Assembly: GCA_036172245.1 (NCBI GenBank)
Contig: JAYWIR010000026.1
Coordinates: 2,666,001 to 2,730,000 of the forward strand
Direction of reading: 5' to 3'
Length of the DNA: 64,000 nt
Source: Raillietiella orientalis
Taxonomy: Eukaryota
Numbering within the stretch: position 1 is the stretch's first letter; every line of letters starts with the position of its first letter. The notes below the pieces were generated by a model, which saw only the letters and a list, made by a program, of their open reading frames with translations, had not been told where the DNA came from and made no database searches. Below, one piece after another: positions 1,941 to 39,449 of this stretch. Position numbers and translations under genes: made by a program.

Positions 1941-1963
1941 GGTTAACCTTAAGGATAGATCTC

Positions 1964-1969
1964 AATAAA
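1964..1969 (+). terminator. Polyadenylation signal AATAAA of CUB-like gene A
   Basis: AATAAA about 24 nt after the stop; present at the equivalent position in all four paralogs (14103, 52542, 63218). Confidence 0.7.
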
Positions 1970-5000: not shown

Positions 5001-6589
5001 TCTCAGAAAGGAACCACCGGACAAATGGGATCACGTTTCTTCTTCAGCCTTCCCTTCCCAACAAACATGAGAAGCAGCGCACCACGGGGCCGTACGGACC
5101 TTTCCCATCTCAAGGGCCTGAAAAGTGCTCAGGGGACTCCTGGGTGGGATGGTGTGCGGTTCCCTCCCAGAAGGACTACCGTGGGTGCAGCAGACCAGAG
5201 TTTCCATGCTTGCGCCCATACGTCCGCCCGATGCGATTGCTCAGAGCACCGGAAGTTAGTGCGAACTATTCATCTCTGGACCGGTTGATTGCAGGGGTTG
5301 CAGTTCCTTTGAAATCTTCCCGTTGCCTAGGTCGCGAGAAATGCTGCTACCACAGTTGGCGCCGGCGTGGACACTGGCGTCGCAGAGGAGGTGCACTCGG
5401 TCAAGCTTTTGTTTGTTTCTCTTCTTGAAGGGTGACAGGGACGAGCAACCCCTCCGAAAGAACGGGTACGGAGAGCGGAACCCCTCACCGGTGAACCGCC
5501 TCCGTTTTGAAGATGGAGCAGGAGCCCTCACGGGCACCTCTCCAGTTGTTCAAAAGAGGGGACCCCCCTGTTGCGGAGGTCCCTTTAAGTCGTCGCCTCT
5601 TCACAGAGTTCACAAGGAGGCAGGCGAGAGAGGTTCCCTGGGGGAAGCTGCAGAGTCCCTTTTGAGTTTCGGGAGCGTCGCTTCGGGGTTCTCTTCAGAG
5701 GAATGAGCAGGAGCGGTTCCCTTGCGGGTTCCCTCCGGAGAAGAAATTCCTAGAAGCGGATCCTTTCCGGGTTCCCTTCGTAGACAACCAGGGTGATAGG
5801 TGCGATCCCCCCCTCCGGAGGGATCCCTTCCCAAGCGTGAGAGGAACAGGATCGGAGACCTTCCTGGATTCATAGGGCGGACCCCCATTCCGCCATGCTG
5901 AAGAATTACACGCCCCCTGAGGGTTGCCGCGAGCGGAGAGGCGTGAAAAAAAAAGTGTGTTAATGTTTTAAAAGATACATGTGCTCCGCGAGGCACGCGA
6001 CCGGCTCTGAAGTACTTAGCGAACCAAAAAAAAGGGAACTCTTAAAAAGAAAAGCTGGAAGGAAAACAGTGAAGACAGAAGAAAAGGAAGAACCCAAGGA
6101 TTTCCATCGTCCTAAAAAAAGAAGAACAATTTCGTGGAGTAGCGCGAGGTTGCGGTCACCTAGCATCAACGGCGAAGGTCGGAGGCTGGGAAGATGACCC
6201 CGCGGAAGATTGGCGCTCCCGGTGCTCCGTCGTCTCTCTATCCGATTTGCTTCACGGACCGCTGTCACGTTGGGCAGTATCTCATAAGCCGCATGCTCAG
6301 AGGGTGGCTGGGAAACGCCTCTCCGCAGACGCCCATTTTCGGGAGGAGCGGGTTGCTACCGTTCCTTCTTGGCGAGCGCGGCTAGAACCGATCTTAGGGT
6401 CAGCAATCCGACAGGATGTGGAGGTTTCTGAAAGGTGGTCACTGTGTAGACCCGGACAAAGAGACTGCTCCGGAGAGTTGCATCGCGCGTTCAGGCAGGT
6501 CCTGGTTTCCCCCCTCAGGCATGAACGGAGCGTTCCACGGCGACCTGGATGGGTGCGGCCTGGAAAGACGAACTAACTCGATCTGAATT

Positions 6590-7240
6590 GCACCTGAGAG
6601 AGAATTCCGAAGGGAGCTACTATCTTGTTCCTTGCAGGAGAACCACCGGGTTTGTCGAGTTCGCTCCAGATTTCTTCTTTGGAGGGACTTCCCAGAAAGG
6701 ATCGCTGCTGGTTTCCTCTTCTGAGGAGAACCCAGAAGGGACGCTTGCTCATTTCCGTGAACGGCGCTCACCGAAGGGGGCAGCGCGCTCCTTACACTCT
6801 GCAGAGATAACGGCTTCATGGATCGCGATGGAGAGTCCCCCTGCTTTCTCGAGGACAGATGCGGCTGCAATTGCACAAGCGGGGTGTCAACTTCCAATCA
6901 CAGTAAGTCACGGCTCCTACCAATGCCAGTTTGGAGGCCGTGGGTCAACAGCGTCATCCTGCAGAGGTTGACTCGAAACTGCGACGTACCCTACCCGACG
7001 TACCGGCGTCGATGCTTCTCCGAACGGTCTTTGAACCCGCGACTTGTGGTACGACCGACGCCACACAAGCGCGCAGGCGCAAGGAACTTTCTCAACGCTT
7101 GCGCTCGATCCTGGGACGAGCCGCGGGTGTTGCAGGTGCTGGAGGATCGAATTTCCCCGGTGCCAAGCGGTAGACCGCCGTGCTTTCCGGCAAACGTGAT
7201 GGTGGCCAAGTGCAGCTTCAACGATCCTGGACCCTAACAT
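6590..7240 (+). mobile_element. Decayed LINE 5' end/ORF1 fragment
   Basis: Same ~40-bp monomers, then sequence alignable by eye to 3290-3500 and 16225-16570. Translation EPRVLQVLEDRISPVPSGRPPCF..VAKC resembles the Tx1-type ORF1 'P..L.V...I.V..GRPP.C..C..GH.AK.C' region. Duplicated at 44505-45152. Confidence 0.45.
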
Positions 7241-7263
7241 CCATCTGGCGAAGATCCGGTTCT

Positions 7264-9293
7264 CTAGGTCGGCATCTCGGCCGCGAGTGAGTTAGAAATC
7301 CTCCAGTAGCACCCTGCTGCCGACGGTGCCTCACAAAACTTATCGCATTTGAACTGCGGCTGGACGGCACACGCAGCTGTCAACAGGTTACACAAAATAA
7401 AAGGACCACAGATGCAGAAGTGCCGTACGAGAGGCACCTTCGTCGCGAACGAGTTCCTCGATGTACGCAGCTCGTTTTCGGACAGCATGTGCATGTCCAC
7501 TCGTTGAGCAACAGCTCACTGAGTTCCAAAGGGATGAGAGCACGTGACGACTACTTCCAGTAGCTGGCAGAGATTCCCCCAGGGAAACGCGATCCAGGTG
7601 GTACCCCGTTCGTGTGCAGTAGGAAGGTTAAAAGTCTTTTGCGTGTTTTTCGACAGTTCATCCGGTCCATAGATCTCTATGTCATGGTCCATCCCTGCAG
7701 CAGCCATTCTTGATCGCGGTACGAACAGCAAACAGAGACTGCATCCTCCATGAGAAGCCCGCTCACGAAGGTAGGAGGACGTCGAGGAGCACATGTAGGA
7801 TCGCAAGGAAGACCCGCTAATCGGATTTCTCACCCTTCACCCTCCGGTCACGCCGAGACGTTTGTTCAGAAAACAACAAACCCACACGAAAGAAGTGGTA
7901 GATCAGGTGATCCCACCACGGTTACTTTTACACGGGAAGGCTACCGTGGTGCCCTTGTGGGGAATTGGGAGAATTAAGAGAATTAAAGATGAAATGGAAC
8001 AAAAAAATGAAAAAACACCGATGGGAACGGGATGGAACCACAGTCTGCCTGGAGGCTTCCACAGGATCTCTTCTAGGAGGGCAGCAAATACCAACTATAT
8101 CTTGTTGCCGGATGGAGCAATCTGGATGCCAATCGCGGGAAGCGAACGGCGGACTGGCAAGCATTCCTTCCGTCTGGTTCCAGGATCTCACTGAGAGAAT
8201 CGGTGCTGCTGTGCCATGATGTCGTCTCGAGCACCATGAGCATCCAAAAGATCGGACTGTAGCTGTAGTTCCGAAATTTAGACTTCTTGAGCCAAATTGA
8301 GGACTAAGTCATGGACCCGTCAGTGGCGTGCTCCCGCTCTCCACTTGCTCTGCCCGGGAGCATAGAAATCCTTTCGCCGCAGCCGCGCTGCGGGCAGAGG
8401 ATGGCTGATCTCGGATACTGCCTGAGACATCCTCTCCACAGCCCTCTAAAAACATCCTTTGATCTCCCGCCTCCCACAAAACTGGGATGACTGGAAACTG
8501 CACTCATTAGGGCCCTTGGTCCCCGTTCTCGAAGTGCTCACCATGGAGTGAAACTGCATGATGGCTATGCTAGAGCAAGGCCTGTGCGTTCATTCACTTT
8601 GGCCGCTTATGGCCTCAGCTAATGTGATATATCAACGTAGTGGAACGCAACATTTCCTGGAGACGCAATTCATGGTTGTCCATCCAGGAACGAGTTGTCA
8701 CAGTAGGAGAGCACTGCAGCTGCAAAGCGTTTAGAAGTGCCTCACAAGACACTGCAATTTGGATGTGTTCGAGTAATCACTGCGAAGCTGGTGAAGACCT
8801 GGGCGTTAGTCCAATCGTTGTGCGAAGACGACGTCTCGCTGGCGCTCCTTGAACGGTTAGAAGTCTCTTATTTCTGAGTGGCCAACCCAGAAAAAACAGC
8901 CACGTATATCTGGTCAATGATCCAGACACATAGCAGTACCTTCCCGAAGGCGTGAAGCATTCGAATGGAAACATTCGAAGAATTTGCACAGGAGAAGGAA
9001 GCCGTTCCACGAGAACAGAGACCGAAAGTCAAGCAGTAGGTTGTAGAAGACGCAACTGGAAAATAGTAACTTGATGGCCGTCGAGAAGGCATTGCCGGAA
9101 CGTAGCCAGCCGAGGAGATTGACAGATGGCCCAAACGGCAGACGTCCCGGCAGATGCAGTTGGTGTGCGGAAGGTGTTCGACCACGTCAACCAAGAATTC
9201 CATCGGAAGCTCCAACAGGTTTTGTGACTTCCGAAGCATTTGCCATGACGTCGATCTTTGGCTGGTGCACGCGTTCAACGAGGTTGCCTCCAT
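7264..9293 (-). CDS. F-box-like protein with possible beta-propeller/WD-like C-terminal exons, copy 1 (multi-exon)
   Basis: ATG at 9293 gives MEATSLNA..NLLELPMEFLVDVVEHLPHTNCICRDVCR, matching the F-box pattern L..LP.E.L..I...L....VCR. Downstream exon AAGMDHDIEIY..LPTAHERGTTWIAF is WD-like. Exon structure and 3' end only partly resolved. Confidence 0.5.
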
Positions 9294-11537
9294 CTGTCGC
9301 CACGAGCGCGCCGCATCCGAGTGAAGCGAAATACTGCAAGGAAGGCCACGCTCTCCCACGGTCTTTAGCATTTTATAGAGATGCTAAACTGTCAGATGGG
9401 ACCATTTGCGGAGCCCCCTCTGCTCCACGTGAGCTTCGGTGGCATTCGTAAAGGACCCGCTTCTCCTGCTGCTTGTGATGACGGTTGTGCCGGCACTCTG
9501 GACATTCCACGGTTGATGTCCCTGAGAGCAAAATAGCTCGCAGACGGAAGGAAATCCGAGCGCTGCCATCGGCAATCCCTGTCAACTCTGTGGCCAGCGC
9601 AGGTGTTTTTGCAGAAAGTGACTGCGAAGCTTTCCTCCGAGAATTTTCTCGTGTGGGCGGAAAAACTGCGGGCAGAGAAAACTGCAGACTTTCTGCAATG
9701 CAGGGCATTGCAACCTTCTGAATCGACGAGGTGAAGGTGAGTCGCCACTCATCAGGGAATATTGCCACGGACGCGTTCCGTGCACAGGCGGAGCCTTTGA
9801 CTTCGCTCAAGGTTTCACTTCACGCTGTGCCTGTACGCCACAGGCCTTTTTCCTGTGAAAAGAGACGTTGATCAGAATGTCAAGCTAGAATCTGGCCAGG
9901 AAGCCCGCGCACTCCTGGAGTTCGAGAAGAATGTCCCTTTGGACCCACTTCGAAGCGTAATGAGGGTGGAATGATATCTTGAGGGGCCTTCGCTTGTCTT
10001 GTACATCCACTACGCGAGTAGAGGAACGTGAAACTTCCGTCTCTCGAATTCTACACCTGAGTGCCTCTCGAAGAACATACAGCCAAAAAAAAGTTTCTCT
10101 CTCGGACTCCAAAGAGTACAGCAAAGACACGCTGCGGATTGAGGATGAATGGTGCCATCCTTCGGGATCGTTCAGCTCAGAGTTTCAATAGCAGCTGTTC
10201 ATCAGATCTTCACACAGCTATCAGACGCGTTCTGCTCACTTTTCCGTGTGTCACCTTCGTAAAGGAAGAGACGCACCCTAGCTGATAGGAAAGAGAAGGG
10301 CGCGTCTCGTGTTTTAAGGATCAGAGAAGCGATGGTCAGCACAGAAATGTAAGCTCTGCCACGAAGTGTTGATGAAATTCCGCGTGCGGTGCTTCAGGAT
10401 TTCTTGAATTCCCCACAGGAAAGACGTTGTGGACGATGCGGGGCTGGGATATGGTTTTGCCGATACGTGGGACCCCCAAGGATGCCAACCAAAAACAGTG
10501 CTTTCGGACTTGCAGAGCTTGCAGGGCGTGCGTCGAACCGTTCCCAATATGGCTTCCTCCATGCGTCCACCGGAAAAAGCCCAGAAAGGAACGGAGAGCG
10601 CGCGCGCGCAGGATGGGCGCGAGAAGGGAACGGAAATCGCTCTCCCCTGCTGATGCTGGCCGTGCAGAGCTGCTCCTTCCCTGCATTGCTGGTTGGCATG
10701 GGCGCTTCATCACATGAACAGTCTGCACGGAAGGGCGAAGTGGGAGGAAGAGTGAGGGCCCTCTTGTCCCTGGAAGCGCTTTTCTCCAGGAAACCATAGT
10801 CGCGCTCTTCCGTGGATGCTCGTGGAGACCCGGAAGCTCCTGCAGTACGGAGGGATGCCGACGGTGAGATCTCGGGCACACGAGGGGGGATCTTGTCCAC
10901 CCTCATCCAGTAGACTCAGCGCAATGACGGTGGATCCTGGTCCGGCCGACCGAGACCTCGAATACCTTGAGGACGCTTGGTGGATACCGCGGCGCAACAA
11001 GAAGGCTTGTGAAGAAGATGACCCCGTTAAGCCGGTGCTGCTGTTCGGGAACACCAAGCAGTCGGCGGCGGAAGAAATGCATACGGCTGTCTGCCGAAGA
11101 GCGGCCGGAACGCGAAACGAATGGTTTCGGCGTGATATTTGCAAGTATGGAATTTTCCTCGCAACGTAAGCCTTGAGATGACATCTGGTGCCATTCCAAA
11201 AAAAGATGTTATCCGTACGAGTAAGGAGGGAAAAGGTTCGTCAGAGCCCTTGGAATACCAACACGCAAAGCAGACAGGTGATCTTGTGCAGTAAGTGTGC
11301 ACATCCCGAAGAGGCGGGATATCTTTGATTGCTACTTCTGCCGAAGACCGCTGCCAGGCAAAAGCATCCACCATGCGCACGGTTTGCCAAGGCGCGACGC
11401 CTAATAACGGCTGTCCCACACGCTAACCACGTTTCGAAAATATTTATAAATCTCGGCAATGTTTTCAGCTCTGAAGTGAAATGCAGTTCTTTTCTGTGCA
11501 TTCCAAGGAAGTTGGTGCTGTGTGGAAAGGCGGCGAC

Positions 11538-14091
11538 ATGGTCCTCTCGGCGCAGCGGTGGATTCTCGGAATCCTTCCACTATTGTATTTGGTATCTGAG
11601 ATTTCAATGATTTTGATGATTTGCGTTAAAATTTCTCCACGTCGTGCCCGGGATTTAGCGAGTCGCCTTCGGTAGAGTAGGCGGTCACTGTTGCCCGGGT
11701 TGGCTCTCTGATGAATTGACGCGTAAAGAAGGACATGGTCCACTGTTTCGCAGCATCGGTTTCAATCCAGCTATACGATTGAAGATGTTGGCTGCTGATT
11801 AAGATTTTTTTTTCCTCTCGTGATTCGAAGAGAAAGGCGAAAACACATATGAGCCGAGAATCTCCTTCTATAGAGCCCCATGCTCGAGTTTTCTTTCTTC
11901 CGTATTGGGTGCAGCGAAAAGTAGTGGCTGCCGCATAGGTTCTCACGGAGCTGCAGCCTTCTCCACGAGGACATCCCGTGGAACGAATAGTGCGGGATTC
12001 TATAGCTCTCGACCTTCGAGGCGTGGTTGCGTTTGCGTGCGTCGTGGAAGCACACGAGACACGCCGCTTCGTTGCTCCCGTAGGACCGGCTATTCTGGTG
12101 ACCCGATGACCCAAACCAGAGCAGCAAAGGGATTCCTGCATCCACCTGCTGAGGACGCGAGGAAAAGCTGTTCGTGTTTTAACGTCTGACCACCATTTGT
12201 GCTGCTTCACTCCTCGCCTAACGCCAGGCGATCCTCCCAGAGAAGGGCAGGGCGACCTGCTTTCCGAGTAACGTCCACGCAACCCTTTCTCGATTGACGA
12301 GAAACCCAACGCCTGGGTGGCAGGGTTTGTGTATTCGCCTTGTTCGTCCTCTGCTGAGAGCCACCTTAGTTGCTACGGAAAGCGATTCGTCACCTGGAGA
12401 TTCTAAGCGATCGTTTCCTCCCACCGTGCTGCGGCGTCTGCTGTAAGGCGAAAGAAGGAACGTTTTGTGGTGCTTTTGCAAAACGATGCGCAGGGCGATC
12501 CGCGGATATAGCACGGTGTCATTGATTTGCTGAGGAAGCACTGAATCCGTTCCCAGTACATAATGCCTCCGTTTGTACAGTGCCCTGCAGGCAATGAAGA
12601 TTTCGCCACAAAGCGGACTCTTTACTGAATTGCTTCGAGGAAATCGTGGTGGAAGACTGGAGGGTTCACCTCTTCGCTATGTAAAGGCAAAGTGTTCCAG
12701 GGTCGAGCCGATCAGGATGTAGCTGACCAGCGAATTCCTGACTTCGTGTTAGGCGACCAAAGCTGCACGCGCTTCATCGTGCCTGGCCAGGCCATTTTCC
12801 AAGATCGATTCATCGTCCAGAGTCTGACTGGAGACTGCACTCTTAGTGGCAAAGTCGGAGGAAGACTCGATACCGTTGTCTTCACCACTCCTAACTTCCC
12901 GAACAACTTTCCTGAGAACACATTTTGTTCTTTGGCTCTTCAGGTAATTAGCGGATTTGCAGCTGTGGACTATGCACGACTTCCAATTAGCCAAACGACA
13001 TCGGGGCATCTCCCGAGAACGTCTTCGGGAGGTTTGACAACCGTTTTGCACTGGGCGAAAATGGGAATCTGACTCTTGAGGACATCTTGCGCATGAGAGT
13101 GTAAGATCCGTATGTACCCATTTCGCGCCGCTGCGCGCACGCAGGATCGTGCTGGACTGCCGGCGCAGCGAAGACACGCACCTCATGCTGGCGCCAACGC
13201 CGTCTAACGGAGTGACTACCTTTCAGAGTCCAGGTTCAAGGAGATTTGCCGACGTTTCCCTTCGTGGAGCTGTTCCTACCCACGACGATCACCTTCCAGG
13301 GGGTTACACCCGCTGGTGGCTTCCAGCTCACATTGTGCATGGTGCCCAACGCATTCCAGGTTTCGTCCCGATTCCGCACGCAGACGAAAACGATCTCTCC
13401 TGCCCTGGTGAAGGATCTGGCGGTTCCACAGCAAATGCTTTCCTTCCTCGTACGGGTACGTGGTGAGCGCATTCGCTGACTGGACATGAGGTCACCTTGC
13501 CGGGTGTCCCTAGGCCGGAGATCCGCGCGCCCGTAGGGGCGCATCTTCCGTCGCGCACCTCCTCGCACCGGCGCGGTCATTTTGAGCTCAGATGAGGAAC
13601 AGCCCACAGGGTGTTCGCGCTTCCTGGGTTTCCAGTGACGAGTTGTCGGGTCGGTCTTCCTGCCGGAGGGAACCTCGTTGGTCCGCATGCGCGTTGCTGC
13701 GTGCCTGCGTGCTGAAACTCGCTCTACGAGTTGGCAGCGCCCGGGGACAGCGGGGTGGCTCTGCAGCGACGGACTTCCAGGATCCGATTTGAAGGATGGT
13801 GTGAGGGGCAATCATTTCTATTTGTAGCCGTCGACACTTTGCCGATTCGTCACCGTCACCTTGCTCAATGTAAACATTCTTGCCAACGAGAAGGTGTCGA
13901 TTGGTAAAAATGGGCAGAATCTTCCGCCCATCGACATCCAGACGATCGTCGGTCCAAAAACTACCGGCCTCACCGTGGTTTCCAATCAAGGTAAATCCTT
14001 GATGTTGTTCTACTACACGGATAACAACCAGCGAGGAATACAAGGAAGCTTCAGCGTCGAGTTCTCCTGCAGGAGCCGAGGTTCCTCTTAA
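11538..14091 (+). CDS. Secreted CUB-like domain protein, paralog B (multi-exon; possibly a pseudogene)
   Basis: ATG 11538 MVLSAQRWILGILPLLYL followed by a GT donor (signal-peptide-like, conserved in B, C, D). Exon RGHPVERIVRDSIALDLRGVVAF differs from C/D mostly at synonymous sites. CUB motifs FTTPNFPNNFPENTFCSL and LFYYTDNNQRGIQGSFSVEFSC. One donor reads GG (12130-12131) instead of GT. Confidence 0.7.
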
Positions 14092-15439
14092 GGATAGAAC
14101 TCAATAAACAGCTCCAGCGTTTTCATTTTATGGTAAAGCAGGGTTTATCTTTCAGTATCCTCTGCAGCATTCTCGTGCACGGTAGCAGCGCTGGTGTCCA
14201 GTGGTTATCGAGGAATGAGTCAGGAAGGAGGCTTTCGTGTTTTGTTTTTGCACCACGGATATTTTGAGGAAGGCAGCAGTGGACACCCATGGGTCCGGAT
14301 CTCATGGGGTTCTTCGTGTTACGTCCGACCCCTACTTTTCTGAGAGGGATGCTGGGCTTCAGGACTGATACCAGCGATTAAGTTCCCAGCCCATTTCTTT
14401 CGGCACCCACAGATAACGGAGCCATGCAAATGCGGCTCCGATTTTCCAAGGTGGTCAGCCTCTGCATTTCATGGCCCGTTGGCATTCGCCTGTGTCACTA
14501 GCAGCAGCTCAGTCTGCAACTCCTTGTGCTATCGTTGTCGAAATTTGGCCAAAGTGTGGTTCTTCCTAGGAATCTTTCGTAGAGACTGCTGCTTTTTTTC
14601 TTTCGCAGGTGTTCTGTGCAGCAGGCCCTCTTGTTACGTGACGATGATTTCCTGGAAGAGGAAAAGAAGGACATGACCGGTATGCATAGCCGGTTGAAGG
14701 ACTAATTTGAACGATGTTTCAGTGGTCTTTGTCCGCATTTTCCTTTTATTCATTTGTATTCCTCATATTCCCCACCCTTATTTCGCTCCGTAACTTTCAT
14801 GTTGCTTTTCGATTTCATCCCGGTGCACCGGAAGGAAAACCAAAGATCTCTACCTCTTTCCACGCGCTTTGTTTTTCTTTGCTGTTCCCGCTCCGAATTT
14901 CTCCTGTGCCGGCCTGTGTTCTGGTGGTCCCTCCATTTTATTTTTTGTAGTCGTCGGTCCTAGGAGCACCTAGGAACTTTGTTCATAGGTGAGACCCTTG
15001 GAATTTCCTATTCGATGGGTGTAGCATGAAGGATTCTATAATGGCTCTCTTCACTTTCAGCTGAATGGGAGATCAACGCATCCAACTTCAGCTTCTTTGG
15101 TACGTAGACCATGGACATCCTACTGACTTGACAACTGCATGTGCTCTTCTCGTTGCTCTTGCAAATGAGACGCGCGTCTGACATTCGCAGGGGCTCGCAA
15201 AACGAGCGGAGCGCGTCTCTCGTAGAAGGCGTTCCGCAGGATTTCGGTCTTCTTTTCTCCTCCTACACGTTCCCCTCCGTCGACTTATTCGACTGCAATG
15301 GCGAGGTTTCCGGTCTCCGGGAAGAGTCGGCGAAGTTTGCGGAAATTGGCAAAAATGTGACAGGGGTGTCGTCTCAAAGCTGGGGAGCCCAGTAACCCAG
15401 GCGTCTACGACCGAAGCGTCTTTTTGTAAATTTTTGTAG

Positions 15440-15813
15440 ATATCTACAGAAGGCACCAGGGAATGATGGATCTCTGCTTCCTCATCCTTCTGATGCTGGC
15501 AGTGATTGAGATGTAGTTTACGTCCGGAAGGAGTGGATAGTGCTGAAAGGCGCGGTCGAATCATCACGCGGTCGTTGACAGGATGTGGCAGTGCACTGCG
15601 AGACAGCAAAGAGCTCCCTGGAAAATGTGATTTCTGCTTGTTCATAAAGCGAGCTGTTGCCTCAGTTCTCTTGGCTTGGCACCTCCACTCCAAGGGCTCA
15701 GAAGAACGCCGTCTGAAGTCCGCGCTGCTTCCTGTCACTCGGGTGGCCACCGGAGGGCGGTGGAATGCAACGCTGATTAGATCGAGGACTCGACGTACGG
15801 GTCGGACACTCAT
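15440..15813 (-). CDS. Probable exon of an unknown gene convergent with the CUB-like gene (paralog at 53465-53820)
   Basis: About 120 codons stay open and alignable in both diverged copies (VAFHRPPVATR..RRRSSEP..LSTPS..DEEA..HSLVPSV); no recognisable domain. Confidence 0.35.
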
Positions 15814-16199
15814 ACTTTCGCGTTCGTAAGGACTTGGGGATGGTGGTGCTTTAAGCGTTTACGCCAGCTATCCTGACGGTGGTGTCCGCCCATTTGGGAG
15901 ATGTTTGCATTCGAGGGAAAAGAGCACCGCCCCTGGATAGAGTGTGGTGGAGCAAGTCAGAGAGCTTCCGGCACTTTGGACCTCCTCGCAAGCGGAGTCG
16001 CTTTTACTGGTCCCCTCCGTCTGCTAACATCCTGGCACGGGAGAATGCTTTTCCGTCGAGGGTTCTGAGCTGACGGGGCGGTTCAGGTCCTGCAATTTTT
16101 TTGATCTCGGGACGTTCTGCTCTGTGGAAGGATGTCCTGCGTGTCCATTGCTAGACTACAATCTTCACGGAATCCCTGCAGATCGTTAGAGGGAAGCAA

Positions 16200-19611: not shown

Positions 19612-19617
19612 TTTATT
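19612..19617 (-). terminator. Polyadenylation signal AATAAA of the CobW-type gene
   Basis: tttatt on the plus strand, about 25 nt downstream of the predicted TGA at 19644-19642. Confidence 0.6.
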
Positions 19618-19641: not shown

Positions 19642-22600
19642 TCAGTCACTCAGGTCATCAAGATTCAAGATGTCGTCGAAATCCTATGATGAGGTGAAGT
19701 GAACCTGCTCTCCAAACGCCTTGAATGGCCATACTTTATCCAGCTCTTCAGACCACTGTGGGAAAGGATCCACGTAACCAAGCCAGGAGTGGCATCCTTT
19801 GGAAAATTCCTCCTCTGTCACAAGACAGGCATCCAACAGTTTGTCGATCAGCGCGTGGTCTATTCCTTCGCCTTTCGAGGATTGGGAAAATCAGGCGGAA
19901 GGGCATGCATGGGGCGCGTACCCAAGAATATGATTTCTTGTCTCCTGTCTCCTATAGTCGGATTGTCATCAAAATCGTTCAGGACCGTCGCTGTTTCCTT
20001 TCTGTCCAAGAGCCAGTCTTCTCTCGAAATTTCTGCGTACCACTGGCCGCCGTAACCCAGGTTCGAGATCCGACCTGGAGTCGTCGAGTTTTCGCAGGGA
20101 CCCGCCGCCGCCAACCAAGGGAGGAGGAGGAGGATGCCACCTACCTGCTTGGCACCAATCCACAATCAGGCGGTTCCTCGAAGCGATCCAAGCGAACCCT
20201 TTGCTCCTCACGATGAGACCTTCGCCGCACCCAAAGCACTCCTTTATTTGCGAGTTGAAGAGCCTTTCCGGGTGGAAAGGCCTCCTCCGGCTGTAGATGT
20301 AGCTGCTCGCTCGCAGGGTCTGAGCGTCGTCTCCTGAAACCGCAAGGCGTCGCTGCGTTCTGCGCCTGCGGCCGTCTTCGCGCGTGAGAAGGAACGAACG
20401 CCCCTGTGGGTTCGCATCTGCTCCCACCTCGCTGTTTGGCAAGGAATGGACGGGAGACGGTCTCCAGTTCGCCGAAGCGCCCCCCTTCCGCATTGCGGGA
20501 GTTCTTTGCGTTGCTTCAGCAGCGACGCACAGGATTCACGGCGTTCTGGAGCGCCCCGAAAGCGCCCCAGGGGAACAGGTGAGCACAAACCTTTCGGGTT
20601 CTGGAGCAGCCTGAGCCATGTGGCGTTGAGCATGCACGTCTGAAACTCGAACTCTCCGGTGTGCAACACTGCCTCTACGGGAATCTTCACACGCGCTGCC
20701 ATTAGTCATTGGGCACACGGGCGGACGCGCGCACGCCGCGCGGATCGAGCTGGCGCGCTTTCATCCCAGGCGCACGGAGCCGCCAAAGAGAGACGAGGGT
20801 GCCACTTTTCGTGCTCGCTGCTCCGGATCGCATCGCTGCCAGGGCAAGCGCTGCTTGCGAGTGATCCCGCCAACCATCTCCTACGTGTGGTCCGGGATCT
20901 ACTCCAGGGTGTGTATGTGTGCGTGCCGTCCTTGGACGACACCCACCATGATACCCCCCTTACCCACACTGAATGACGATGACGGCAGCGGATGCCGCGC
21001 GACTTTGCGACTAAGTCGCCCGCGTGGAGTTTCGCTCCAGGGAGAATGGGAAAGAGGCGCACAAGCAAACGCCCACCGCCCCTTTGGTGCCGAGCCCGCT
21101 CGACGGCTGGCACCAAACGACCGAGACCGACTTGCCTCACGCTGCAATTTCACTCCCTTGGCGAAGCACCGTTCAGCGCTTGGCAAACAACCTTCCCGAG
21201 ACATACCCAACCCATCAAGACACAGGCAGCAACAGCGTTAGGCTGGGTTCCTTCCTAACCTCGCAGACATGTCTTCTACCAGCACTTTCTACACGGCATC
21301 GGCTCTCCGCCTGGGGCTTTCACGGCCTCGGTTCAACGTTTCAGAGCCCCGAAAAGGTCCCGAAAGAAAGACGGATCAACTGAGCATAGAACTCTTATCA
21401 AGGACACCAGAGAAAGTCGGCAATGCAAGAATCCCCGTCAACGCCAGTCTGCAGGGCACGGACGAACCAATGAACCCGAGAGGATGCCCGCACCCCCTCG
21501 TCTTTCCATCGACAGCAAACCGCACATGAAGGGGGGAGAGGGGAACGGGCCAGTGTAGATGCGTCATCCCTGTGGTCTTCCTGCAGTCAGACCACAACCT
21601 GTTCGCTTCCCTTCCCTCTTTCAGCTCTTTTCGTAAAGCTGCGCTCAGATGCTTGCAGCAGCTGCGTCCGCATCTCCGTCTCCACAGCGACCCCAGCTCT
21701 CACGAACACTACGGAATCACACCGAAACGCACGCGCGCGATTCTTTCATTTCTCTTTGTTATCGCTAAGGTTCGCACTTTTTCTGGAGAAATCGGGGAGA
21801 CGGGACATTAGGATCACGAGGACACTGGGAAGTTCGGGCTGATATCGAAGCATCCGCTTTGGTAGCTGCACATCAATGGGTGAATCCCTGGCGAGAGCGC
21901 GGAGGTTGAACTTCAACGCATAGAGTCAAACGGTCATGAAGATCTGAATGCGGGAAGCTGCAGCACTTTCGTCACCCGCCGTCGGCTTCCCCAGTCTACC
22001 CATTCGACCTCCGGTAGGCATTTGCAATGCCGATGCAGAAAAGCCAGAGCTTTTCCGGATACTTTACGGGCTTCTCAGGTGCAGACCTAATAAGAGCGAC
22101 CCGTGTCTTAGACCCGAGAGCACGTTGCCCGTGACACCTGCTAGACTGATTCGCTTCCAGACTCTGATCCGACCTCTTTCATACCACCGCGAACCGATTT
22201 TTCCGAAACCGAGCGGACGCTAGCTTCGAGTTTCGCTGACCACTCCCGCCAGAGAACACAGTCACGCTCACAAAGGTGCAGATTCAAAATGGAGATTCAC
22301 CTGAGAGTGCACGGCACAGATGAGACGTGCCCGTGAATTGAGAAGAGACACAGTTTTCAATATTGTGGTCTTTTCCTCAGAAGAAACCTGGTCGATTTTA
22401 TTCAAGACGATGACGTTCGCGAATTCGATCTGCAAATGCAAAAGCAGAATCCAGATGACAGTGTCAACCCTCACCAAAGCTGCTGTTTGAGCATCAAAGA
22501 TTGCGCCTTGAGAAAGAAAAAAAAAAAACCGAAGAAGGAGAAAGGCCGGAGCGCGTCCTTGGAGGATATACGGGAACACTGAAGATCGAACAGAACGAGG

Positions 22601-23507
22601 TTCGATTTTCAACTCGCAGTCAGGAGGATGCTTTGCCCTCTCTGGAAGCAGCACGGTCTGTTCAAGAGTTGAGGCTAGTGGCCTTCGCGCCGTCACATGT
22701 TTCGACTGCAGGAGGCAGCTCTTCCATTTTGACACGCAGTTTCGCAGAAGGGTGAAGGCGGAGATAAAAGGCGGGAGACCCGCGGCTGCATTTCTCCGCG
22801 ACGGAATCTTTGAGATGAAAAGAACGAGATGGTGAACAAAATTGCCTGTTCTACTAAGACCGACACCACAGGCTGATCTTCCACGGTGCCGCAGTGGGAG
22901 TCTATTTCCTTCATTTTCTTCGTGGAATTGAAATGAAGCAGGAAGGTGGAGGCGTCGACCATCGTGACAAGCGTGTCCAAGCTGCACACAGAGGACAGCT
23001 GGTACGTTTCCATTCCTACGGGTCGGGAGTGAAAGGACGGCAGCGGAACGCACGCAAACCGAATACCTGGTATCCTGGAGGTGAAAGTGTCAGCAATTGC
23101 TATCGGCTGGCTGATCCCCGTTCCTTCGATGAACAGGTAATCGAATTTCTCCCTGGACACCAGTCCCTTGACTCCGTTCAAGAGGTCCACTCTTCGAGAG
23201 CAGCACACGCAGCCATTTTCGAGACTTATGATTTTGAGATTCCTCTTATTCTCATCCCTTATGTTTTTGTCCGGCGCTTGCGCTTCCGTGTTTAGTTCAG
23301 CAATGTTGTTGACGATGAAAGCCATCTTACAGCACGTGGTGCACTGATCTTGATTCTCATCGTTTCCGCTACCTTCATTTCCTGCTTTTCCTGCATGACG
23401 TGTTTCAGGAGAGTGGTTTTGCCAGACCCGAAGAATCCGCTCACGATGCAGACAGGAAGCTTCGGGTTTCTGCCTATGGCTTCTGCTTTCGACGACGAGG
23501 AATCCAT
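19642..23507 (-). CDS. COG0523/CobW-family G3E GTPase (zinc metallochaperone, YciC/ZigA-like) with CobW_C domain; 9 exons, 435 aa
   Basis: Hand-spliced exons 23507-23373, 23325-23067, 23015-22846, 22429-22301, 20684-20591, 20333-20145, 20074-19922, 19871-19735, 19683-19642 give one open frame of 1308 nt. Motifs: LPVCIVSGFFGSGKTTLL (Walker A), NGCVCC (CXCC), IEGTG (ExxG), EQ|IEFANVIVLNKID, RRPFHPERL, VRSKGFAW, GDRRQEIIFLG, LDACLVT, DPFPQW. Confidence 0.92.
20850..21650 (+). mobile_element. Possible decayed LINE fragment inside the 1.6-kb intron 4 of the CobW-type gene
   Basis: Intron 22300-20685 is far longer than the others; it contains VIPVVFLQSDHNL (~21560-21600), similar to the SDH motif ending LINE endonucleases. 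Weak evidence. Confidence 0.25.
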
Positions 23508-31049: not shown

Positions 31050-32920
31050 GGAGCATGAGCGAAAGCTCTAGCGCCCATGGTGGCGGAGGAGACGCCCGTT
31101 TCTTCCTCAGAAGAATCGACATCCCCCAGGAGGAGTTGTGGAGGTCTGTGGCTGCGGCACCTTCGCGGCCGCGGTAGAGGCTAAGACCTACCTCTCTTCG
31201 GGCTACAACCCGTGCCTGAGGTACAGGGTAGGTCAATTGTGAAATCCAGCAGCAGCGCTCTCCTGCTCGGAGAAGCTACACAAGCTGCAAGTCAAACAGG
31301 AGGAGCTCGTCGCCCTTTCCATTCTGAGCGGTGGGCAGACAGTCGAGGTAGCTTTCAAGGAGGCGAGCCTTGCCCAAAGACTAATGCACACACTGATCAC
31401 AATCGAAGGGCGCAAGATCTTCTTAGTGACGGGGGACCGCTCCAAGGTCGTGGGTTACGGTGAGGATGACCAAGGAAGCGGTCGTCCGCTCACTGCAACA
31501 GCACGGGACGGTCCACGCACTGTGGTCAAAGCCCAACGTATTTCCCTACTTACAGGTAATAATTAGAGGGCTAGCCGGAGCGCGAGTGGCTGTCAGGGAA
31601 GGAAAAGAGCTTCCCCACAGACTGGAAGTCAGCCCGTCGACCTCTGGTACGCGGGGAAGGCAAAGATCCGCACACATTGTGGCAAGTCGTATCACCTGAA
31701 TAGAAGGTGCCCCGACAGTATATGCTACAGATGCGGAAGAGCGGGCACATGAAATTCTTCTGTCCCCTCAGACCCGGCAGACCTTCCAAGAGCGCTCTGG
31801 AACGGGAAAAAAATAAAAAAAATAAAAATAAGAATAAGGACAAGAGATCGCGCATGATTCCCCTAGGAGGAGGAAAACAGGCGGGGAATGCCAGCAAGGA
31901 GGTTCCTTCCCCCGATGCAAGCGAGGTGAGTCCTAACGACGCCGAGGCAGCACAGGAGGAAGAAGGCTGGACGGTGGTGACCCGCCGAAAAGAAAAAAAA
32001 CAAAAAAGCATACAAACAAAAGAAAAAATCCTGCGAATTTCGACGCCTAAGGCTCCGAAGACCGCGAAAGACGCTATCGATTGCGCTGTTAGTCAGGTTG
32101 CGGAGGTCGTTGTCACCGAGATCAAGGACCTCGGAAGTAACAGCGCGATTGATAGGCTGCACCCAACGGCGCCGCATCGAACGCTGCGATTGCGAAGCTG
32201 TTAACCGTCGGAGGCATAACAACGCGCGCGGCCGCAAAGGCCGGCTGGAGGGGAATCTGGAGACCCGAAGAGGGACCTCCCCAGGGTTCGTTGGAATCCC
32301 TAGTCGATACCGTGAATTCTCGCCCTGAGACGGAGGCTCGCCACTCGACATTGAGGAAGGCCAAAGCGGCTAGAACGCTTCAGGCCCAAGTCGAGCAGGA
32401 GGAAGCCTCCGAACTAGAAGGATTCAGGAAGGTTCGCATGGATCCTCAGTGGAGGCCGCCCTGCCAACCCCTGCACAAAAAAAAGGGATGGAGGGAGGGA
32501 ATATGGTTCAGGTTCCCCTTCCCCGCCCAGACAACGCGCCGGCAGAGAGCCGGGAGGGTGCTGCGCCGGCAGATTGCCTGCAGTCATGCATGAAGTCGCG
32601 TTCTCCCGTCGCTTGCGCGTGACCGTTTGGAACGTGAACGGCCTGCGCGACCTCGGGAAAAGAAGCGACAAAGCTCACACCCTACGAAACTTCGAATTGG
32701 CGCTCCTCCAAGAGATCCATGTGACCTCGCACGAGAATGCCGCAGACTTCGAACGGATCGCGTGCGGAAAGCTGCATTGGTGGTGTGGCACCCGCAACTC
32801 TAGGAAGGTGACCTTCCTGATACAGTCCACCATCATGCGTACGGTACATAGTGTGCGGTTCGACGTTGCCACCCGGTCAAGCAGGAGCATTCATTGCAAA
32901 CTGACAACAATTGCAGTATA
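31050..32920 (+). mobile_element. L1/Tx1-like LINE 5' half: ORF1 (gag-like, CCHC knuckle) and AP endonuclease start; disrupted
   Basis: EAVVRSLQQHGTV..ELPHRLEV, frameshifted CYRCG..GHMKFFC knuckle (31723-31763), EEEGWTVVTRRK, then LRVTVWNVNGLRDLGKR..LALLQEIH (32574-32921). Confidence 0.85.
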
Positions 32921-33019
32921 AGGCCCCTCTGCGGCCAATACGACAGGGGACCTTCCGGGTCGTCGGTGTGCAGACCGACTTGACTCTCCACGGCAGCGGA
33001 GGGGGATGGAGAAACAACC

Positions 33020-34925
33020 AAAAAAAAATAAAATAAAATTGAGAAAACAATAGTAATCTGAAGGGTCGGGAAGGGAACACTGTCCGCTTGTTGGAGGTTC
33101 CATCCTCTGCAGGATGCCGACGAGGTCCTGCTGCGTGTTTCCCAGGTGGGGCCATCGGGTTGCTATTCGCAGGAAGCGAGCTGCATACTCCATGACATCC
33201 CTGTCGTTTGCATCTTCTACTTCGGAGCAGCCAATGCCAATTTTGTTTGGAGTGTATACGTCCACTCCAGACCGCCACAATACCGCAGTTGCAGCTGAGC
33301 GCTGCTACGGCTGCGGCTGGTTGCAGGGCGTCCTGCACGAAGAGGAGCCGAAAAACTCTCTGGGAGGGCTGCCCACCGTTATCCCTAGGGTCGTCCCGAA
33401 ACGCTCACAAAGGGGCCGGAGGGCAACATAGTCAACTATCAGGTGCGGGAGGGATTCCCGTTACCCGCACCTGGCACAGTTTGGATTCACTCGCCCCCGT
33501 GTCCAGTGGTGGTGGCGCGCGTTGCAGGGGAAACCCCAGTGCAACAGCATAAGCGCCGACTCCTGCTACTTAAGAGGCAGGATCCTAAATTCATTCATCA
33601 CCGGGGACCACTTCAGCTCATCCATCGGGATGGCGAGCAGCTCACCCCATTTCAGTAGTCCCCACGGCTGGGCGCTCGGGGTCGTTGCGTCCGCGAGTTG
33701 TCCCATGGTCCAACCGCTCATCAACTTTTCTTTGCCTGCAATACGTCAGGAGACTTCCCACCTCGGCGTCCGGCTGCTGACGAGGGCCCTTCATAGGAAG
33801 GGCAGTGCTGTAGCTAGGCAGGTCGTCTCCGCCCACGTGCTCCTGGCGGGACACTCCAGAATGGTCCGCAGGGTGCAGCAAACGTGGGTGCTGAATCGCA
33901 GTCAGTTCCAGTTGTCACTTCTCTGAGCATTTAACTTCTCCACGTTTTAACAGATTCCTCTAGCCATGCGGAGGAGTTGTCGGGCTGCATACCATCCAGC
34001 CGTTCTCCTTGGCCAGTTTAGGCATGCGTCCCAGGAGAAGGCAGCATCTTTTGATCTTCCGGCCACGGCACAGAAGATACGACGCGAGTCCTTGCGTTCG
34101 GGATACAAGGCTAGCTAGGAGGCGGGCCGGAAAGCACCAAGGGATGATTCACAACTTTGCTGCGATGAATATGGTGCGCCATCGCAGCTGAATTTCCAGG
34201 CGCTCCAGAGTCGGGATACCAAGACCGCCGTCCCGACGCGGAGCGCACAAGTCCTTCAAAGGCACTCGGGGCATCCAGTTGCCCCACAGGGCGAAACGGA
34301 GGAGGTCTTTCGTCCTTTTCTTTATATACACGGGGACGGGGCAAACAAAAAGCAGGGGGCAGAGCCGCCAACGCGTTCCACGAACCGCGGCCTATTCCGG
34401 CAAGAGCCTTCCAGGAACGGGCTGATCACCAACTCTAGCTTCTGGAGACGACCTGACCAGGCTTCTGACGGGCAGAAGTTCCCCAACGGGACGCCCAGGT
34501 ATTTCAGGTACCCTCCTTCAGGATGCAAATGGACCTCGAAGGCATCCTGCGAAGGATGGGCCCTCCTCCCAGTGGGCAGTGATCCCTTCCTGGCCCTCCA
34601 AACTCTTTTTTTTTTTTTTTTATTTTTGTTTTTTTTTTCTCCCCCATCCCCTTCCACTGCCGAAGAGAGTCACACCGGGCTGCGTCCCGGCGTCCCGGCA
34701 GGTCCGGTGTTGCTTGACCGTTAGTGGGGCCACGTTTTGTGTTGACCATGCAAGAGTTTTTAAATAAACGTCCCAGCGTATCCGGGTGGCATCGCCAAAT
34801 CCGGTGGGTAGGCGATACATGGAGAACTCCTCACAGAACACGCGGACTGAGTCCTTGAATCGGCCCCAATCCGTGAGATTCTTGAGGCTGACCAGAGCTA
34901 CCCTGCAGAGCTCGTGCCCCGGCAT
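33020..34925 (-). mobile_element. L1/Tx1-like LINE 3' half (RT to 3' end), inverted, disrupted
   Basis: GFGDATRIRW..GTQPGVTL (RT), YLKYLGVPL, DLCAPRRDGGLGIP, AAAVAALSC C-terminus, then a T-rich tail; homologous to the plus-strand copy at 34925-36650. Confidence 0.85.
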
Positions 34926-36650
34926 GCCGGCCGAGTCGGCCTATGCAGATGATCGCTTGCTGCTGCTCCCTATGACTGCCCCTACAGACGCACTCAAGGA
35001 ATTTTTCGAGCTATTAAGCAGAGGAACAGGCATGAAGGTGAACAGAGGGAAGTCAAGCGTGTGTCCTGTCGGCGCGATGTGGACTGAGCAGTTGGACTGG
35101 GTGCGCTTAGGAATCCCCACGGTTCGGTACTTAAAGTACTTGGGCGTGCCGGTACGGAATGTTTCTTCTACGAAAGCGTGGTTCGGTTGCCTCCAGAAGG
35201 CAGAGTCGGTGTTCGGCCTGTTCGATGAAACTTCTGGTTGCCGGAACGGGCCGCCATTTGGAACACCTTTGTAACCCCTGTCCTCCGACTTATGCTTTTT
35301 GTTCGCCCCGCCCCACTCGGCATGGTGAAATCAACAAAGGATCTCCTTCAAAAAGCCCTCTGGGGCAATGGAAGGTCCTGAGTCCGATTAAAAGACTTGT
35401 GCGCTCCTCGTAGCGACGAAGGACTTAAACACCTGACATTGGAGAGCATGGAAGTACAACTGAACTTCCGAAGAGTGACAAATTCCTTCGTGGCACAGAA
35501 CTAAGCCATCCATTGGTGCGCCTCTGTACGTTTGCACTCCTAGCTGGCGGTCGGTGGTGAAGGATTTGCAACCCTGTTTGCGTGTCACCACCTCTGGATC
35601 CCAACCTGCGGCTTCCCTCTACGGTATCCACGTGTTTGCTCCCGTGAAAACAAACACGTGGATTTGCTGCCGCCCTGCGAACACTCCAGCCTGGAGGCAG
35701 GAGAAAGTGAGGAAGTGGGCCCAGCCCACCCGAACTTCGTCGGAAGTTACCCGTTGCCGAGAGTTTCAGAAGAACAGCGGAAGAGCACTGGGGGCGCTGG
35801 GTAGTGAGCTGACTATGTTGGCCTATCTACTAGCCACCCCCTTCCCCGCAGAGGTGTTTTCTTCTGTAGCGACTGCCTTCCAACGAAATGGGAGGTTTCC
35901 AGCAAGATCTCGGCCCGCAGGAAGTATATCGGTGACTGGACTCCGCGTCAGTTGGTTGACGCAGAAGCAGCAAGAACCGCCTCCAGAGCACTGGAACGTT
36001 GGGGAGAGCTCTTCTCCGTTCAGTCCGAAGAGTTGGAAGTGCTCCCGTGTTTATGAACAGAACAGTGCTTCCCCTCAAGTGGCAGCAATCCGCGCTGCTG
36101 ATACGAGCATTCACTGGGATCTCCCGTGCAATGTGTGCCGGCACCACTGGACGAGGGGAAGCGCATCGCCGAACTGTGCCAGGTTTGAAGAGAAGGAGAC
36201 CTTTCCCCACCTCATAGTGCAGTGTGTCGCCCTCCGGGGCTTGTGGGAACGTTTCTCTGCGCCCCTTTCCCACCCCATGCACGATCCCAGAGACTCTTTG
36301 AGGCCCCTCTTGGTGTGGGATGGCATGACGCCCGCAGCCGCAGTCGCAGCGCTGTGCTGCGTACGCGGTGTCGTCGTGACCAAGTACGACGCCAACAGAG
36401 TCTGAAGCGACGGGGAGACTCCCTTGCACGCCATCCGCTTCCTGCAGACGTCCCCACTTGGGAAAAGAGAAGGAAGAGCTCGCCGGCATCCTTCAACGGA
36501 TGCAGAGGCCTCATCAATCATCCATCATGAAACGTGATCCCTTTTCTTCCTCTCGATTATTGTTTTCTTTGTTTTGTTTTTGTTTTTGTTTTGTTGTTGT
36601 TGTTCTGTCAATCTTCAATTTTTTGTTATAGGCTATTTTTTTTTTGTTGA
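34925..36650 (+). mobile_element. L1/Tx1-like LINE 3' half (RT YADD to zinc finger and T-rich tail), disrupted
   Basis: SAYADDRLLL, GMKVNRGKS, YLKYLGVPV, C-terminal PNCARFEEKETFPHLIVQCVALRGLW (zf-RVT-like), T-rich tail 36560-36650. Confidence 0.88.
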
Positions 36651-38479: not shown

Positions 38480-39210
38480 ATCAGTTCCGGAATCCCGTGA
38501 GGGCAAGTGCGAATCGGATGATCTTGCCCTTCTGCCAACTATTTCGCGGACCGTGCAAGTCAGGAAGGGCTCCTGTTTCGCCGCTGTCCACCTCCGAAGG
38601 AGGCGAGTAGCCTTGGCGAGTGACTGCTGCCGATGCGCAGGCAGCCCGTTCGTTAAATGCGAGGCCTCCACACGCCAAGGGTGAGGGCAGCCTCATCCTC
38701 CGAGTTGCATTCCTCGACGTCTGCTTCGATAGGAGTGTAGGACGGGAGAGCTCGTGGATGCTGTGATGCCAACTACTCCACCCCATGGACTTTTGCGCTG
38801 GGGCAAGCTGCTGGATGTTCCATTGGAACACCTGTAGTGGCCACCGGTGCTCATGGACGTCCTTGAAGTGGCAGGAGTCGGCGCTGCTGCTGCTGCACTG
38901 GGACCTCCCGTGCAACGCCCTCCAGCATTACTGGGCGCGGGAGGGAGGGTGAGACCCAAACTGTGCAAAGTACGAGGAGTGGGAATCCCTCCTGAATCTC
39001 CTAATGGACTGCGCTGTGCTCCGGCTCCTTTGGGGACGCTTTGCCGCGACCCTAGGAGCCTTCGGCAGCAATCCCAGGGACTCTCATCCGCGATGCACTT
39101 CGGCCGGCAGTCTCGCTTGCAGCTTTCTGCTGTCTACGCAAGATCTTTACAGCCTGGAGCTATGCTGAAAGAGGACATAGCGACAGGGATGCCATCCACT
39201 TCGCCGTCCG
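38480..39210 (-). mobile_element. Decayed LINE RT fragment
   Basis: Minus-strand degenerate motifs in order: RRSGWHPCRYVLF (QG.PLSP.LF-like), CIADE (YADD-like), LHSLGLTL (YLG-like), LPSPLACGGLAF (P..GGLG-like). Confidence 0.5.
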
Positions 39211-39211
39211 T

Positions 39212-39250
39212 TGCATAGGGATGGCAACGCGATGATGCCATCCCTATGCA
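39212..39250. repeat. Perfect 15-bp inverted repeat with 9-nt spacer
   Basis: tgcatagggatggca-acgcgatga-tgccatccctatgca. Confidence 0.95.
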
Positions 39251-39449
39251 GTTATTTCATTCATCTTTTATTTTTGTTGTTTTCTTGTTTGCTTTTTCCC
39301 CTCTGCTGCCGTGGCAGACCGTGCCGGCCTGCGAACCAGTGACCCGGCTGGCTCCCGTTAAATTGCGCGTGGTTGAACCACTGATCCAGCCACAGATTTT
39401 GTAAATGTTTATTTGTTTTTTATGAATAAACACCCCGGCGTACCTGGGT

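Follow-up and report, generated by a model that had tools for sequence, protein, structure and literature searches.

In animals, ZNG1 (CBWD) and METAP1 form the sole established chaperone-client pair of the COG0523 (G3E GTPase) proteins, and the clients of ZigA-type members of the family are still largely unknown, MchC and ZagA having been linked to GTP cyclohydrolase I (GCH1/FolE). The functional roles of the CxCC, RxKG and PETEEY motifs are well established. A signature for MchC, RxKGxx[WF]x14Gx10[WF] together with GChCCxx[KRH], has been defined (PMC12584730), and the supplement of the same paper reports the subfamily from fungi, choanoflagellates and filastereans. No animal carrier is reported in the literature covered here, which includes the distribution text of PMC12584730. 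In this study, we describe a ZigA-type gene that occurs as a single copy in a crustacean-like arthropod genome and lies in a window of 64,000 nucleotides, by which the whole stretch of DNA analysed is meant.

Gene structure and subfamily assignment

The initial annotation had proposed nine exons joined into an intact 435-aa COG0523 protein, and splicing of the window bears this out: nine minus-strand exons (23507-19642) give 1308 nt encoding 435 aa, with a single terminal stop. Exon 1 (23373..23507; aa 1-45) encodes a short N-terminus lacking the METAP1-binding motif of ZNG1 and the Walker A motif GFFGSGKT (23438-23415), and exon 2 (23067..23325; aa 46-131) encodes switch I with Asn52 (23307-23305), the putative zinc site GCVCC (23214-23200) and the Walker B ExxG (23127-23116). 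A GC donor closes exon 3 (22846..23015; aa 132-188), which is followed by intron 3 (22430..22845; 416 nt, GC-AG), while exon 4 (22301..22429; aa 189-231), with the G4 motif NKID (22402-22391), is followed by intron 4 (20685..22300; 1616 nt), of which a genome search gave no second copy. The G-domain's end and the linker's beginning are encoded by exon 5 (20591..20684; aa 232-262), and the degenerate linker DDAQTLR (20331-20311), RRPFHPERL and the arginine-finger RSKG (20208-20197) by exon 6 (20145..20333; aa 263-325). The MchC signature, interrupted by intron 6, is completed in exon 7 (19922..20074; aa 326-376), which contains GDRRQEIIFL, exon 8 (19735..19871) runs from LDACL to DPFPQW, and exon 9 (19642..19683), predicted from splice sites only, would supply a short acidic tail and the stop. 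A match to the AATAAA polyadenylation signal (19612..19617, minus strand) lies 25-30 nt past the stop codon.

Introns 1-8 measure 47, 51, 416, 1616, 257, 70, 50 and 51 nt, and seven of the eight are GT-AG; the GC donor of intron 3 is required because it keeps the invariant Gln ahead of IEFA. A downstream acceptor for intron 7, giving 433 aa, was rejected, since with the upstream acceptor the spacer regains the 11 residues that it has in the relatives (60 of the 63 with a matching pattern, among 89 examined), which argues that 435 aa is right. Read-through of intron 8 would terminate at 19684. Exon 9 and the intron 4 acceptor are putative placements made by sequence alone. Two metal-response-element cores 91 and 241 nt upstream of the gene were set aside, the background being 1.5 per kb.

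Every motif quoted in the initial annotation (Walker A, GCVCC, NKID and the C-terminal motifs) is present in the spliced protein, and the N-terminus, as had been stated, lacks a CPELVPI-like motif, no [D/E]..PxL[VI] occurring in the first 40 residues. Walker A, the ExxG Walker B and NKxD are accompanied by a CxCC motif between G2 and G3 (GCVCC, aa 83-87), and a CobW_C domain (PF07683) scores above cut-off on exon 6, with the invariant RxKG present as RSKG at aa 305. The MchC signature is matched exactly; it is also found in 82 of the 89 relatives and in none of host ZNG1, YjiA and YeiR. All six scanned exon pieces match the NCBIfam ZigA profile NF038288 colinearly (1-28, 31-111, 171-212, 252-303, 307-352 and 356-390), ZigA being the top family for five of them and MRF for the exon-8 piece. 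Their scores sum to about 250 bits against a whole-protein cut-off of 600 bits, only pieces having been scanned; the cut-off is probably not reached, and we do not count the protein among ZigA proper. Identity to the family consensus falls from 59 of 84 near-invariant columns through 58 of 123 intermediate to 44 of 188 variable ones, as purifying selection predicts. Grouping with ZigA-type proteins, apart from ZNG1 and YjiA, was supported at 93 in a 61-row tree and 99 in a 56-row tree, and was also obtained in the placement test. At the sequence level, the proposed YciC/ZigA membership is thus upheld by motifs, signature, profile and trees, and the predicted protein is confirmed as a COG0523 GTPase of the ZigA/ZagA(YciC)/fungal MchC subfamily.

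Host genome and origin of the gene

The gene's neighbourhood had been described as animal-looking, and the host is indeed an animal, its COX1 being closest to arthropods. The gene is located on a 3.0-Mb contig, which shares its GC/CpG mosaic and a decayed repeat family with the contig carrying ZNG1, and which also carries mitochondrial-type fragments and a MYST acetyltransferase. At the assembly level, the ZigA-type gene is physically integrated in the host genome. The CUB, GPS and Ly6 neighbours claimed for it were not recovered, no Pfam match being obtained among 8 + 29 + 84 ORF pieces of the window; some exons, judged by eye, look CUB-like. A stretch of the window matching locus L027 is not rRNA.

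The separate canonical ZNG1 that was to be looked for was found in the same genome, intact, in 13 exons and with the N-terminal [D/E]n-PxLV METAP1-binding motif that the ZigA-type protein lacks. Host ZNG1 likewise has one GC donor. Since the host has its own intact ZNG1, the second gene is not animal ZNG1, and the claimed distinctness of the two holds in their scores (82 bits against the host's own ZNG1 and 319 bits against the best ZigA-type protein). That the gene is an assembly contaminant, a pseudogene or a diverged ZNG1 duplicate is very improbable. Such readings might draw on the GC-rich, repeat-rich stretch in which it sits without a Pfam-confirmed neighbour, and on the ZNG1 branch surviving (p 0.27) with ZNG1 as the only outgroup, where that branch is simply the root branch; but the contig has host repeats and host composition, the reading frame is intact, the subfamily signature is absent from ZNG1, and a position sister to ZNG1 is rejected with YjiA in the tree (p 1e-5).

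The recommended BLASTP check gave a divided answer, in that the top matches are bacterial (the best full-length match has 319 bits and 40% identity over 404 aa), whereas tree placement favours fungal and protist members. No close relative beyond this 40% match was found in the protein libraries searched. No animal relative was identified among the best 150 of 2814 matches, 30 of which were looked up and included five named eukaryotes and no animals. Longer proteins were screened with exons 2-3 by word index, a weak search with 321 candidates, and gave nothing; a profile search with an exon-plus-homologue alignment brought up bacterial ZigA-type proteins of a generic kind, a PDB search only YjiA, and viral contigs no match. 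A metagenome scan with a Fusarium protein yielded 80 loci, and the 12 inspected were unbroken bacterial-type genes.

All trees were built from the 433-aa splice, two residues short. Row sets were varied (YeiR was left out after the 61-row tree, YjiA was left out of the 37-row tree and one further tree, and bacterial subsets were removed), and five eukaryotic rows carried a name, no row coming from a choanoflagellate, a filasterean or another animal. Placement was tested on a fixed backbone under LG+F+G4 with 1000 and 10000 replicates. In three of the five trees and both placement tests the window protein lay nearest to fungal and protist members, weakly and on a very long branch (2.2-2.5), in no starred group. 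In the 61-, 37- and 56-row trees it joined the rows of Fusarium and Nonionella and some unlabelled ones, with SH-aLRT values of 94 (61 rows) and 81 (56 rows), its position among those rows being unresolved in the 37-row tree; FastTree put it next to the unlabelled P0124 (support 0.16), and in one further tree it came out at the base without resolution. Of 115 positions the 17 best, and of 105 the 15 best, fell in or beside the Fusarium P0064 group, with 37 and 38 placements, respectively, surviving the test. Positions sister to the best BLAST match, L053, or to Bacilli-like rows were rejected (p 0.016 and 0.013 or lower). The signal toward eukaryotes in diagnostic columns and in a column-profile score (+41) is confounded, since divergent gut-bacterial control rows score up to +28.

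The bacterial donor first suspected is not borne out by the likelihood placement, and this placement, together with the occurrence of the subfamily in choanoflagellates and filastereans, leaves a eukaryotic donor and a vertical relic as live readings. We tentatively prefer, at a likelihood somewhat short of even, a functional host-integrated ZigA/ZagA/MchC GTPase gene that was taken up long ago, by horizontal transfer, from some eukaryotic microbe, either a fungus or a protist, and retained alongside the ancestral ZNG1. That the gene came from a bacterium in an ancient transfer, then gained eight introns and evolved fast, is unlikely. Such a history would fit the bacterial BLAST matches, the compact bacterial-like length, the lack of the acidic insert that almost all members from fungi, green algae and SAR have ahead of RxK, and the seven placements within the named-bacteria group or on its stem that survive the 10000-replicate test (p 0.05-0.09); however, short-branched sequences win BLAST ranks, the bacterial placements lie 18-28 log-likelihood units below the best, a position sister to the 30-row bacterial group is rejected (p 0.0009), and no bacterial neighbour genes were seen.

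It is rather unlikely that an MchC-type gene was present in the animal ancestor, was lost in most lineages and survives here as a fast-evolving relic. The distribution in unicellular opisthokonts, the closeness to fungal rows and the eight introns, one of which matches a host ZNG1 intron in site and phase, are consistent with such vertical descent, and the listing of UreG, another G3E GTPase, from ticks and spiders (entries in PMC10642216) indicates that patchy retention of these GTPases happens. Against this, many independent losses would be required, the best matches held no identifiable animal relative, and, by estimate, chance alone would give a shared ZNG1 intron site in roughly one case out of ten.

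Substituted residues and predicted function

The PETEEY zinc-gating linker motif is lost, DDAQTLR standing in place of PETEEYG, while 242 of 269 relatives match a relaxed PETEEY pattern. The first PETEEY Glu, which is probably the gating E258 as judged by a 35-residue spacing, corresponds to Asp265 in the alignment. Switch-I position 52 is Asn, and is acidic (Asp or Glu) in all 269 relatives; 32 of 112 highly conserved columns are changed, the median for the relatives being 1. With PETEEY eroded and Asn in place of the switch-I Asp, zinc is probably coupled to hydrolysis more loosely or more slowly.

In the mechanism proposed here, the three cysteines of GCVCC would bind Zn(II) and GTP would be bound through G1/G3/G4; the C-terminal domain would close over the nucleotide, the RSKG arginine finger would trigger hydrolysis, and hydrolysis would hand the metal over to some client that is not METAP1. 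The protein is likely a zinc chaperone for such a client, for which the first candidate would be GTP cyclohydrolase I, here for pterin/BH4 synthesis and not folate; GCH1 is present in the host on a different contig. A host search for urease gave no match (the control rang in 5), which does not show absence. We infer that the gene is expressed and its product active, and we likewise infer its donor and client. Independently of origin, it is doubtful that the protein has become a sensor, buffer or slow switch that binds Zn and GTP and is no longer a GTP-driven chaperone. The changed columns, Asn52 and the loss of PETEEY might be so explained, E258A in Acinetobacter baumannii ZigA uncoupling zinc from hydrolysis, but Walker A, ExxG, NKxD, CxCC and the RxKG finger are all retained, Asp still occupies the probable E258 position, and MigC is zinc-gated without a PETEEY-type linker.

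New features here are the PETEEY loss, with Asp at the probable gating Glu, and the switch-I Asn. As these substitutions hit residues recently tied to the zinc gating of GTP hydrolysis, the protein offers a natural mutant for the gating question. It is possible, although somewhat unlikely, that it is the first animal ZigA/ZagA/MchC member and also a variant made by nature, with PETEEY gate and switch-I acid replaced but CxCC and the arginine finger kept. If true, the animal, perhaps a parasitic crustacean facing host zinc restriction, would have a second, METAP1-independent route of zinc delivery, leading to GTP cyclohydrolase I or to some new client, and the 2026 model of self-gapping and gating could readily be tested on the protein. 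If expressed, an animal member would point either to a metal-handling gene passed from a microbe to an animal or to an ancestral gene since lost by most animals. Horizontal transfers into arthropods are common, which limits the weight of the case.

Comparison with known systems

The nitrile-hydratase activator Nha3 of Rhodococcus is, like the window protein, a COG0523 member with RxKG; we presume it to be close to the ZigA group, its sequence being outside the trees. It differs in context, a host search for nitrile hydratase alpha having given no match with its control blank, and a nitrile hydratase client is unsupported. With animal ZNG1/CBWD the protein shares the COG0523 G-domain, CxCC and the one intron site, whereas it has no METAP1-binding motif, a different C-terminal domain and 30% identity over only 213 aa.

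Acinetobacter baumannii ZigA (NF038288) and Bacillus subtilis ZagA/YciC are alike in their two-domain layout, G motifs, CxCC, RxKG finger and ZigA-type C-terminal insertion, with bacterial members reaching the 40% identity given above. In contrast to these, the window gene has eight introns and Zur regulation is impossible, the protein has switch-I Asn for Asp and a replaced PETEEY, and its branch is far longer than that of any named bacterial row, the gut group excepted.

MchC of Aspergillus fumigatus and the MchC-like proteins of fungi and protists (PMC12584730) differ from the window protein in their acidic insert before RxK, His-rich tail and length (585 against 435 aa), in keeping PETEEY and in not being set in an animal host, where a search for HPPK of the folate pathway gave no match (the control rang in 11), which does not show absence. 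They are alike in both parts of the MchC signature and in being intron-containing eukaryotic genes beside a ZNG1-type paralogue, and it is with them that the best likelihood placements were obtained.

Structure and integrity of the gene

Joined by their coordinates, the nine minus-strand exons at 23507-19642 gave 1308 nt encoding 435 residues with a single terminal stop. Introns 1 to 8 measured 47, 51, 416, 1616, 257, 70, 50 and 51 nt, GC-AG borders were found at intron 3, and an AATAAA was located at 19617-19612, downstream of the stop. An alternative acceptor of intron 7, six bases downstream (433 residues), was set aside because the upstream acceptor restores the 11-residue spacer of relatives, present in 60 of the 63 pattern-matching proteins among 89 examined. 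All six exon pieces scanned matched the ZigA model in colinear order, and exons 2-3 scored 110 bits against it versus about 30 against the CobW and YjiA models. The protein matched the family consensus at 59 of 84 near-invariant and at 44 of 188 variable columns, a gradient that argues for purifying selection. The gene, single-copy in own-genome searches, is real and apparently maintained.

The CUB, GPS and Ly6 neighbours named in the initial annotation found no Pfam support among 121 ORF pieces of the window. CUB-like exons without a Pfam match (for example 12629-13069 and 52244-52543, plus strand) belong to a segmental unit, three to four copies of which, 74-92% identical, occupy 1-16190 and 40259-64000. 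A decayed LINE-like element at 32400-39450, with an endonuclease-like start at 32418, has copies of 66-80% identity on contig C34. The repeat at 5496-6033 and 43402-43949 is 78-85% identical to the flank of an 18S fragment locus (L027, contig C23), but is itself not rRNA.

Subfamily membership

The pattern RxKGxx[WF]x14Gx10[WF], by which MchC-like proteins are defined (PMC12584730 supplement), is exact in the protein, where it spans the intron-6 junction; it occurs in 82 of 89 relatives and in none of ZNG1, YjiA and YeiR. Together with the ZigA-model matches of the exons, this upholds the original YciC/ZigA-type assignment. At 319 bits and 40% identity over 404 residues, the best full-length match came from Bdellovibrionaceae; both host ZNG1 and Escherichia coli YjiA scored 82 bits. 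A phmmer search with exons 2-3 against 1.84 billion representatives returned 2814 matches. None of them reached E <1e-30, and the best 150 of the 2814 stayed at or below 48% identity, so no close relative is present in that library. Human COG0523 has been assigned to a different subfamily (PMC2770081), and no report of an animal member of this one was found in the literature as judged by titles and abstract openings. The protein belongs to a known subfamily, for which we found no report from this host group.

Host genome and its ZNG1

The window lies on contig C26, which is 3.0 Mb long in a 210-Mb assembly. COX1 identified the host, a lineage that the initial annotation could not name, as an arthropod: the best matches were the pentastomids Armillifer and Linguatula (72-73%), with insects behind (68-71%), and a 20-row tree joined the host to three pentastomids, with which it has 24 residues in common versus 9 with insects. 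Because this set held pentastomids as its sole crustaceans and C-rich mitochondrial DNA may produce convergence, the host is placed just as a crustacean-like arthropod, possibly related to pentastomids. COX1 matches numbered 54 genome-wide, and many mitochondrial-type fragments lie in nuclear contigs, among them a nad1-like piece (L016:874-1059) on C26, some 19 kb to the left of the window. The 9.2-kb contig C282 (locus L122, 1745-2300) has about 550 bases between cox1 and cox2, including a second copy of the pre-cox2 sequence; it may represent mitochondrial DNA that was rearranged or copied into the nucleus.

A separate canonical ZNG1, whose presence had been left for checking, is an intact 13-exon gene on C34 with DEEVPELI at its N-terminus; its arginine finger is RLKG and one of its introns is GC-AG. 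The DNA around it is AT-rich and CpG-poor, and window DNA is GC-rich. Both compartment types are found on both contigs, which also have a decayed repeat family in common, and the two genes are therefore assigned to one genome. Across loci L004-L024 the two contigs, C26 and C34, form a sharp mosaic of 50-65% GC, CpG-normal DNA and 28-35% GC, CpG-depleted gene bodies (CpG o/e 0.23-0.4), a pattern expected from gene-body methylation. Intron 7 of the window gene (19921-19872) agrees in aligned glycine and phase with intron 12 of ZNG1, an exact coincidence expected by chance about one time in ten, and intron 4 lies one base off from ZNG1 intron 8. A nearly full-length peptidase M24 match (C15:556520-557464), intron-less and with five stops, has the structure of a processed or transferred pseudogene.

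Regulatory residues, predicted function and origin

The high-affinity zinc site draws three thiolates from CxCC, and G1, G3 and G4 bind GTP (PMC11672702, PMC11052692); RxKG of the C-terminal domain is described in a preprint as an arginine finger required for hydrolysis (PMC13001444). All are retained. The position following the switch-I Asn, acidic in 269 of 269 relatives and in all 79 matching frames of 80 from metagenomes, is Asn52 here; no direct test of this acidic residue was found in the literature consulted. The PETEEY linker, loosely matched in 242 of 269 relatives, is replaced by DDAQTLR. In A. baumannii ZigA, E258A within PETEEY is reported to raise basal activity and abolish zinc stimulation (PMC13001444), and by spacing E258 would be the first Glu, aligned with Asp265. 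Highly conserved columns were altered at 32 of 112 (median 1 in relatives), and unusual substitutions occupy regulatory positions. We predict a chaperone that binds zinc and GTP with altered gating; a non-hydrolysing sensor is the less likely rival.

METAP1 is an unlikely client, since the protein lacks the N-terminal motif. ZagA and MchC have been tied to GTP cyclohydrolase I (PMC12584730); the host genome has an intron-split GCH1 match and its search gave no HPPK match, which would suit a pterin rather than a folate role for a GCH1-linked chaperone. By analogy, such a link could perhaps hold here.

Five trees were built, one with FastTree and four with IQ-TREE. FastTree (90 rows) set the protein beside an unlabelled one with support of 0.16. 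In three IQ-TREE trees it fell together with Fusarium, Nonionella and unlabelled rows, away from named bacteria (SH-aLRT 94 and 81 in two; the third unresolved among those rows), and the fourth left it at the base, unresolved, beside the same rows. No starred group contained it, and its branch was 2.2-2.5 (median 0.6-0.8). When it was regrafted onto every branch of a fixed backbone, 37 of 115 positions (YjiA included) and 38 of 105 (ZNG1 as sole outgroup) escaped rejection, and in both tests the top-ranked ones fell inside the fungal group or next to it. With YjiA in the tree, a placement as sister to ZNG1 was rejected (p 1e-5); it survived (p 0.27) where the only outgroup was ZNG1, which is saturated. 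An artefact or a ZNG1 duplicate is very unlikely. Sister to a 30-row bacterial group was rejected in the 115-position test (p 0.0009), but in the 105-position test seven placements among bacteria passed, with p 0.05-0.09. The bacterial transfer first proposed stays among three remaining readings and is less likely than the best supported of them.

A vertical relic is likewise less likely. ZNG1 is described as the vertically inherited form, usually single-copy (PMC10642216). The MchC-like carriers in the supplement entries of PMC12584730 are fungi, bacteria, halobacteria, green algae, haptophytes, Discoba, Amoebozoa, SAR, Filasterea and Choanoflagellata, with animals unlisted. We tentatively favour a microbial eukaryote as the donor. 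For one unlabelled protein of the fungal group, all look-alike clusters are eukaryotic, mostly ascomycete. Diagnostic columns lean 5 to 1 toward eukaryotes, weak evidence because divergent gut-bacterial rows do likewise. Fungal MchC-like members typically carry an acidic insert, whereas the window protein has none.
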